DNA from: Eledone cirrhosa
Taxonomy: Eukaryota
DNA: 64,000 bases
Assembly: GCA_964016885.1 (NCBI GenBank)
Contig: OZ024749.1
Location: forward strand, 37,386,001-37,450,000
Direction of reading: 5' to 3'
Every line of letters begins with the position of its first letter. Within the stretch, counting starts at the first letter, position 1. The notes under the pieces are model-generated. The model had not been told where the DNA came from, did no database searches, and saw only the letters and a list, made by a program, of their open reading frames with translations. Below, one piece after another: positions 53,033 through 54,513 of this stretch. A program made the position numbers and the translations under genes.

Positions 53033-53348
53033 ATATCCAGTGCTTTTATCGAGAATGACACAGCTAGAAACTTATAGAATACTTAGCTGTGTACAGGAAC
53101 TGGTTTGAAAGAGCGGTTGCCGGTCCGGCAGAAATTAGAAATTGGAATAAATGCTCAGAAATAGCGATATACAGAATATTTTCGAATATTCTATGTCTAT
53201 ATTCACATATATATCGCTATTTCTGAGCATTTATTCCAATTTCTAATTTCTGCCGGACCGGCAACCGCTCTTTCAAACCAGTTCCTGTACACAGCTAAGT
53301 ATTCTATAAGTTTCTAGCTGTGTCATTCTCGATAAAAGCACTGGATAT

Positions 53349-53391
53349 GTAGTCCTGATGATTTCTAACGAGAATGAAACGCGTAGATTAC
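53349..53391 (+). ncRNA. Type I hammerhead ribozyme, array copy 1
   Basis: GTAGTC-CTGATGA-tTTCT-AACG-AGAAt-GAAA-CGCG-TA/GATTAC. Stem I is 6 bp and is extended by a perfect 16-bp helix (53325-53340 / 53398-53413). Palindromic stem III ACGCGT; GUA cleavage after 53385. Confidence 0.88.
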
Positions 53392-53658
53392 TTCCTTTGC
53401 TTTTATCGAGAATCTAATTGTAATACGTGACGTATTCTATTCTATAGCGATTAGGTCTTCAAAATGTTTATTATAAACATACAGAATATTTTCGAATATT
53501 CTATGTCTATATTCACATATATATCGCTATTTCTGAGCATTTATTCCAATTTCTAATTTCTGCCGGACCGGCAACCGCTCTTTCAAACCAGTTCCTGTAC
53601 ACAGCTAAGTATTCTATAAGTTTCTAGCTGTGTCATTCTCGATAAAAGCACTGGATAT

Positions 53659-53701
53659 GTAGTCCTGATGATTTCTAACGAGAATGAAACGCGTAGATTA
53701 C
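53659..53701 (+). ncRNA. Type I hammerhead ribozyme, array copy 2
   Basis: Same sequence as copy 1, +310 bp. Confidence 0.88.
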
Positions 53702-53968
53702 TTCCTTTGCTTTTATCGAGAATCTAATTGTAATACGTGACGTATTCTATTCTATAGCGATTAGGTCTTCAAAATGTTTATTATAAACATACAGAATATT
53801 TTCGAATATTCTATGTCTATATTCACATATATATCGCTATTTCTGAGCATTTATTCCAATTTCTAATTTCTGCCGGACCGGCAACCGCTCTTTCAAACCA
53901 GTTCCTGTACACAGCTAAGTATTCTATAAGTTTCTAGCTGTGTCATTCTCGATAAAAGCACTGGATAT

Positions 53969-54011
53969 GTAGTCCTGATGATTTCTAACGAGAATGAAAC
54001 GCGTAGATTAC
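53969..54011 (+). ncRNA. Type I hammerhead ribozyme, array copy 3
   Basis: Same sequence as copy 1, +620 bp. Confidence 0.88.
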
Positions 54012-54278
54012 TTCCTTTGCTTTTATCGAGAATCTAATTGTAATACGTGACGTATTCTATTCTATAGCGATTAGGTCTTCAAAATGTTTATTATAAACAT
54101 ACAGAATATTTTCGAATATTCTATGTCTATATTCACATATATATCGCTATTTCTGAGCATTTATTCCAATTTCTAATTTCTGCCGGACCGGCAACCGCTC
54201 TTTCAAACCAGTTCCTGTACACAGCTAAGTATTCTATAAGTTTCTAGCTGTGTCATTCTCGATAAAAGCACTGGATAT

Positions 54279-54321
54279 GTAGTCCTGATGATTTCTAACG
54301 AGAATGAAACGCGTAGATTAC
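54279..54321 (+). ncRNA. Type I hammerhead ribozyme, array copy 4
   Basis: Same sequence as copy 1, +930 bp. Confidence 0.88.
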
Positions 54322-54478
54322 TTCCTTTGCTTTTATCGAGAATCTAATTGTAATACGTGACGTATTCTATTCTATAGCGATTAGGTCTTCAAAATGTTTA
54401 TTATAAACATACAGAATATTTTCGAATATTCTATGTCTATATTCACATATATATCGCTATTTCTGAGCATTTATTCCA

Positions 54479-54513
<35 letters not shown>

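Follow-up and report, generated by a model that had tools for sequence, protein, structure and literature searches.

The 64,000-nucleotide stretch of Eledone cirrhosa DNA analyzed here (the window) contains a tandem repeat that is probably a non-coding hammerhead retrozyme, copied by a Penelope-type reverse transcriptase (RT) that would have started at the two ends of a single DNA break and used one RNA, probably circular, as the template for both. The locus is a young insertion, one of at least 1,001 loci of its family. Its 310-bp unit has a GC content of about 0.33 and no protein-coding frame, and its layout is head-to-head: two arms are joined over 3 nt, and both RNA 3′ ends point outward into (TA)n tracts. 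With position 1 of the unit set at the base after the predicted hammerhead cut, the features of the insertion and its borders are as follows:

52820..52856, no strand: left (TA)n target tract, read from the sequence
52857..53171, minus strand: inverted arm, 1.02 units; its RNA 3′ end is unit position 139 (site A) and faces the left (TA)n tract
52990..53032, minus strand: hammerhead motif of the inverted arm, from the sequence
53169..53171, no strand: head-to-head junction of the arms, a 3-nt overlap; short overlaps are usual in the family
53169..54482, plus strand: direct arm, 4.24 units; it starts at unit position 94, and its RNA 3′ end is position 167 (site B), facing the right (TA)n tract
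53325..53413, plus strand: 16-bp helix closing the hammerhead domain, 53325-53340 pairing with 53398-53413
53349..53391, plus strand: hammerhead motif copy 1, predicted cut after 53385; recurs at +310, +620 and +930
53515..53557, plus strand: initiation region of one unit; the outer ends of other insertions map here, with primer letters in terminal copies
53659..53701, plus strand: hammerhead motif copy 2, from the sequence, predicted cut after 53695
53969..54011, plus strand: hammerhead motif copy 3, from the sequence, predicted cut after 54005
54279..54321, plus strand: hammerhead motif copy 4, from the sequence, predicted cut after 54315
54483..54511, no strand: right (TA)n target tract, read from the sequence
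54512..54805, no strand: separate neighboring element, the 3′ end of another hammerhead repeat family, head-to-head with two different ends

Self-comparison of the window sequence revealed continuous period-310 identity over 53169-54482 (4.24 units, 100% identical), in agreement with the perfect array of about 4.2 copies described in the original prediction. That description was right about the direct copies and incomplete as to the insertion, as it overlooked an inverted unit at 52857-53171 (1.02 units, 100% identical to the direct units). Because the inverted arm adds a fifth unit, the insertion extends from 52857 to 54482. The claim that no ORF is present was also borne out: in an endlessly repeated 310-nt unit, the longest stop-free frame was 59 codons and the longest ATG ORF 30 codons. 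The initiation region of the unit consists of the TA-rich site A (positions 130-139), followed by a tail of 26-33 nt that leads to site B (positions 163-172).

Each unit contains a type I hammerhead motif with a 6-bp stem I, an intact core, a palindromic 2-bp stem III and a GUA triplet; its stem II, which has U-U at its start, is weak. A motif search placed the direct-arm copies at 53355, 53665, 53975 and 54285, and the four cut positions predicted earlier agree with the sequence. Upon folding, the 310-nt monomer was more stable than its shuffles in the linear form (z -4.6) and also in the circular form (z -4.3), the check that had been proposed for it. Pair probabilities were near 1 for stem I and the 16-bp helix, end pairs excepted (14 of the 16 pairs in the latter), about 0.4 for a long-range 8-bp helix and about 0.15 for stem II. 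The earlier description of the unit as highly structured thus holds, but two of the hairpins, listed in it with 1-nt loops, lose one pair on folding and have loops of 3 nt. An Rfam search, which had also been proposed, did return a hammerhead match on 121 bases (HH9), but a weak one (15.7 bits, E 0.13) under the gathering score of 52; over 4 kb it returned hairpin-type miRNA matches only and no hammerhead. No hammerhead core was found when the minus strand of the unit was inspected for one.

Further support for the fold came from a sister family of tandem, non-coding repeats with a period near 314 bp that are 71% identical over the unit. In a comparison of the window unit with eight sister-family copies, for which the registers were set by hand starting from the core, 9 of the 36 pairs in five helices were compensated, 3 were one-sided, 3 were broken and 21 were unchanged; 4 of the 16 pairs in the 16-bp helix were among those compensated. 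These double-changed pairs that remain paired support the predicted hammerhead anatomy. Given that two families provide one comparison, the compensation would back the fold and not ribozyme activity.

Across the genome, the 43-nt hammerhead occurs in 4,033 exact copies (reversed control, 0). The commonest site-B end is found exactly at 1,001 places, which puts the family at 1,001 loci or more, and a motif common to it and its sister gave 25,048 matches, with 83 of the first 100 belonging to the 310-nt family. Internal divergence in arrays of 14-20 units is 0-0.1%. (TA)n was met at nearly all outer ends where these were visible, in 43 + 79 stretches of family arrays, which speaks against the possibility raised earlier that the other copies are ordinary pLTRs attached to a Penelope ORF. 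Tandem 310-bp units, a hammerhead in each, the lack of an ORF and the many dispersed arrays all favor the non-LTR retrozyme class to which the original prediction had assigned the element, and the best reading of the sequence would be a new family of animal (metazoan) non-LTR retrozymes within that known class. The unit is also present in the contigs of runs X1, X2, X3 and X6 (four organism codes), mostly with the common letters of the family; in X2 and X3 it takes the form of a single contig of 340 nt, as would result from tandem DNA and from a circle alike.

The outer ends of the family fall at unit position 139 (site A) or at 163-172 (site B), 26-33 nt apart, and both sites are far from the predicted ribozyme cut. 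Other arrays had been expected to start and end in free phases; instead there are two fixed outer ends, one per arm. In 44 stretches not chosen by their ends (the window and L031-L073), both ends were visible in 36 two-armed insertions, comprising 33 A/B, 1 B/B, 2 B/other and 0 A/A. A second set was anchored at site B and contained 80 stretches from the first 84 of the 1,001 site-B matches, all on contig C1, four being left out as already sampled. One of these was without the anchor (L293, dropped), one had a gap, five ran beyond the stretch and four were single-armed; at the 69 scored loci, where both ends were visible, the other arm ended at 138-139 (site A) in 69 of 69 cases. Terminal site-A copies have T instead of the unit's C at position 131 in 41 of 68 cases, which is what priming by the TA strand of the target itself would produce.

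The inner ends are scattered around the unit, with overlaps of mostly 0-9 nt, and show no enrichment near the predicted cut (7 of 136 within 10 nt vs. 8.8 expected). Both arms are longer than one unit at 56 of 68 loci, and arms reach up to 19 turns of the unit. At L214:3843-4020, in an array with a period of 311, the inner junction has a double inversion. Target-site duplications were seen by eye at L040 and L065, and none is readable at the window insertion; an automatic search gave candidates at eight anchored loci, which are weak because most targets are pure TA. An inverted 5′ copy, a one-ended tail and a microsatellite target, the signature of the Penelope 'tail', are all found in the 310-nt family. 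The fixed outer end sites tie the element to Penelope-type machinery, which very likely moves this family.

The two arms of an insertion also carry the same variants. Although 30 haplotypes exist among the 66 two-armed loci, the haplotype is the same in both arms at 63 of them, compared with 7.6 after shuffling of the arms and a maximum of 17 in 2,000 shuffles. Over 122 loci, 114 of them informative and L049 left out for its three arrays, 211 variants were fixed in a locus, 182 were confined to a single unit and 28 were intermediate. Of the fixed variants, 34 are private, being found at no more than two loci; the 27 of these that could be tested are without exception present in both arms (27/27), with none in one arm only. 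At the window locus, three private or nearly private variants are each found in 5/5 units, and a 106-nt stretch with two of them has five occurrences in 3.0 Gb, all at this locus and on both strands. A-to-I editing was considered as an origin of the locus-private variants and rejected (A>G 9 vs. T>C 7, p 0.45). As single-unit mutations are not homogenized, the simplest reading is that a single unit of a source array may have become the template for all daughter units. The concordant arms, the private variants shared by both arms and the uniqueness of the window variant thus speak for the earlier suggestion of copying from a single monomer. The arms are discordant at three of the 66 loci (L258, L232 and L266). 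At L258 both arms change haplotype past the outer two units, in the same order from the outer end, a pattern more readily explained by a linear multimer or a (double) template switch than by a single circle. The 28 intermediate variants show that some duplication or conversion took place later at the DNA level.

On balance, each array is probably the product of one rolling-circle event, with a Penelope RT dimer priming the two cut ends on one circular RNA, each at a fixed site of its own. By analogy with known retrozymes, an array would be transcribed and its hammerheads would release monomers that are then ligated to circles. A Neptune-type RT/GIY-YIG protein, likely as a dimer, would bind the initiation region and cut both strands of a (TA)n target. 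Priming would take place at site A for one target end, through TA-rich pairing, and for the other at site B, which lies 26-33 nt downstream. Both enzymes would then circle the template with strand displacement, past the cut site and for up to 19 turns, and the two cDNAs would be joined at random points via short overlaps such as those observed at the junctions.

If the same double priming took place on a long uncut array transcript, the hammerhead would be dispensable. The haplotype order at L258, identical from the outer end in both arms, agrees with such a linear template, as does the finding that uncut RNA is the main substrate for an anole element in vitro (PMC11167929). A linear template is nevertheless unlikely, as daughters should inherit the unit-specific differences of their source in both arms, and only L258 and L241 look so. 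The 27 private variants are fixed in every unit of both arms, and even homogeneous sources would still require a monomer step for new variants. Quite improbable is a short Penelope-style insertion that was later expanded as a satellite by unequal exchange and gene conversion, the route discussed by Li et al. (bioRxiv 10.64898/2026.07.22.740005). Adjacent units with common variants at L048, L224 and L034, and innermost units that mirror one another in L057, would be in line with expansion; the intermediate variants are few next to the 182 singletons, however, the internal differences of the 14- to 20-unit arrays are too small, and expansion would not explain why nearly all young loci have long arms.

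A single priming event followed by cDNA snap-back, with one arm as a fold-back copy of the other, would account for identical arms, and a few junctions are indeed near-perfect palindromes. We regard it as very improbable: the inner ends are offset from each other by amounts spread uniformly over the unit (KS p 0.88), the two arms show no correlation in length and each is the longer one at some loci, and a fold-back copy would not halt at site B, where pairing is only about 2 nt. Even less plausible is a viroid-like RNA that replicates from RNA to RNA and is occasionally fixed in DNA. The size, the strong folding and the many haplotypes are reminiscent of such RNAs, but the minus strand is without a hammerhead core, and the diversity is explained by the at least 1,001 loci together with an older, 71%-identical genomic sister family; the 'viroid-like' part of the original prediction was not supported, as all of the copies inspected have the look of DNA insertions. 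It is scarcely credible that the perfect identity or the copy number is an assembly artefact. The locus-private variants in all five units, and the single-unit differences that other arrays keep, indicate that units were not polished to a family average. Copying by a Penelope-type RT from both cut ends on one RNA, probably a circle, is therefore the reading that we prefer.

Candidate enzymes for this double priming are encoded in the same genome, where 10,596 candidate GIY-YIG loci were found and 150 were scored. Several carry RT and GIY-YIG with a cysteine linker, and we read these proteins as Neptune-type, a label taken from the description in PMC8557442. One Neptune-type family, whose RT has its named relatives mostly in bivalve molluscs, in keeping with a mollusc host, has intact ORFs of 728-752 aa, as well as a hammerhead with a U-U base and a palindromic stem III in 1,406 exact copies. 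Its ends at 25 loci were 16 A/B and 2 A/other, with 5 indeterminable and 2 in single orientation; no scored locus was A/A or B/B. This family has a tail of about 50 nt and a terminal repeat without homology to the 310-nt unit. Head-to-head Penelope-like insertions with an intact ORF in each arm were observed at L326 and L327. In a second ORF-linked Penelope-like family (L121 and L344-L373), a similar short site-A motif is present and a tail of about 33 nt is seen in 3 of 30 copies; its 3′ region has a hammerhead-like core with positions 3 and 8 changed and without clear stem I. Neither a copy of the 310-nt unit nor an autonomous element with a terminal repeat homologous to it was found at any of the 50 GIY-YIG loci that were examined out of the 150 scored.

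Two other repeats were rejected as the autonomous partner. The sister family consists, like the 310-nt family, of tandem non-coding repeats (about 314 bp), and in 29 copies of the neighboring hammerhead family no ORF belonging to it was found upstream. The latter family, found at 54512-54805 and 35079-35260 (minus strand), is abundant, with a stem II nearly that of the unit and a longer stem III; at 54512-54805 it has two ends about 65 nt apart, and its body is long and non-coding. Elsewhere in the window, a 240-bp palindrome (93%) near (TA)n tracts at 55551-55793 is probably another head-to-head repeat insertion. Hammerhead-core-like motifs occur as head-to-head pairs at 28167 (minus)/28264 (plus) and 43633 (minus)/43661 (plus), and singly at 6461 (minus), 7450 and 44816. 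L114:8068-9553 contains tandem hammerhead units of another kind, repeated about every 490 bp.

If double priming on one circle is true, it would explain the Penelope tail, the inverted copy and the tandem structure together, and the circle would be proven as a transposition intermediate of animal retrozymes. Retrozyme circles as templates of Penelope-type enzymes have been proposed since 2014-2020: more-than-unit copying of circles was put forward in PMC4209133, and PMC7229834 defined animal retrozymes, showed their circles and proposed their Penelope-like reverse transcription. Retrozymes have also been derived from Penelope terminal repeats, with later satellite expansion favored (Li et al., 2026; bioRxiv 10.64898/2026.07.22.740005), and in the same study 8/9 predicted Xenopus retrozyme dimers were uncleaved and 1/9 was cleaved. 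In PMC8557442, Penelope insertions are described as having inverted copies and a tail at one end, and how their tandem/inverted structure and tail arise is called undefined. A purified Penelope-type protein, for which a dimer is predicted, cuts and extends both strands, and two internal start sites define the tail (Frangieh et al., 2024; PMC11167929). In the text consulted of PMC7229834 and of bioRxiv 10.64898/2026.07.22.740005, head-to-head two-armed insertions, fixed ends and arm-shared variants are not described; the words 'inverted', 'octopus' and 'cephalopod' are absent from the main text of the former, and no description of the 310-nt family or of two-armed retrozyme arrays was found in the main texts of the literature consulted. 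The 310-nt family offers countable genomic evidence: each arm has one start site, each insertion one template, and there is no stop at the ribozyme cut. The long-assumed copying step, an RT acting on retrozyme RNA that is probably a circle, becomes testable, and the coexistence of a 310-nt substrate and intact candidate enzymes in one genome makes an in vitro test possible.

Among known systems, hammerhead viroids and viroid-like circular RNAs have a similar size range, a hammerhead and a folded RNA. The 310-nt family differs from them in having the ribozyme on one polarity only and thousands of genomic copies with retrotransposition scars, with no sign of RNA-to-RNA replication. In L1 twin priming, the second target strand primes on the same RNA, which leads to 5′ inversion. 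Priming of the second strand on the same RNA is also part of our reading of the 310-nt family, in which, unlike L1, both start sites are fixed, both arms span the whole unit several times and the site-B arm runs past the start of the site-A arm.

Metazoan non-LTR retrozymes share with the 310-nt family low-GC tandem units of 150-450 bp, a type I hammerhead and the lack of an ORF (Cervera and de la Pena, 2020, PMC7229834; bioRxiv 10.64898/2026.07.22.740005), a short palindromic helix III and co-occurrence with Penelope-like elements; the U-U at the base of helix II is found in axolotl HHR_Amex2 as well. Circles and cleavage were shown for those retrozymes, whereas for the 310-nt family both are predicted, and no autonomous partner with a homologous terminal repeat turned up for it at the 50 GIY-YIG loci. 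Penelope-like elements of the Neptune and Poseidon types (Craig et al., 2021, PMC8557442; PMC11167929) resemble the family in the inverted 5′-truncated copy beside tandem copies, the one-ended tail of 30-40 bp, the microsatellite targets, the two internal starts and the extension of both strands. In contrast to these elements, the 310-nt family is without an ORF and has many full units in both arms, which makes the strict pairing of one site per arm and the single template measurable.
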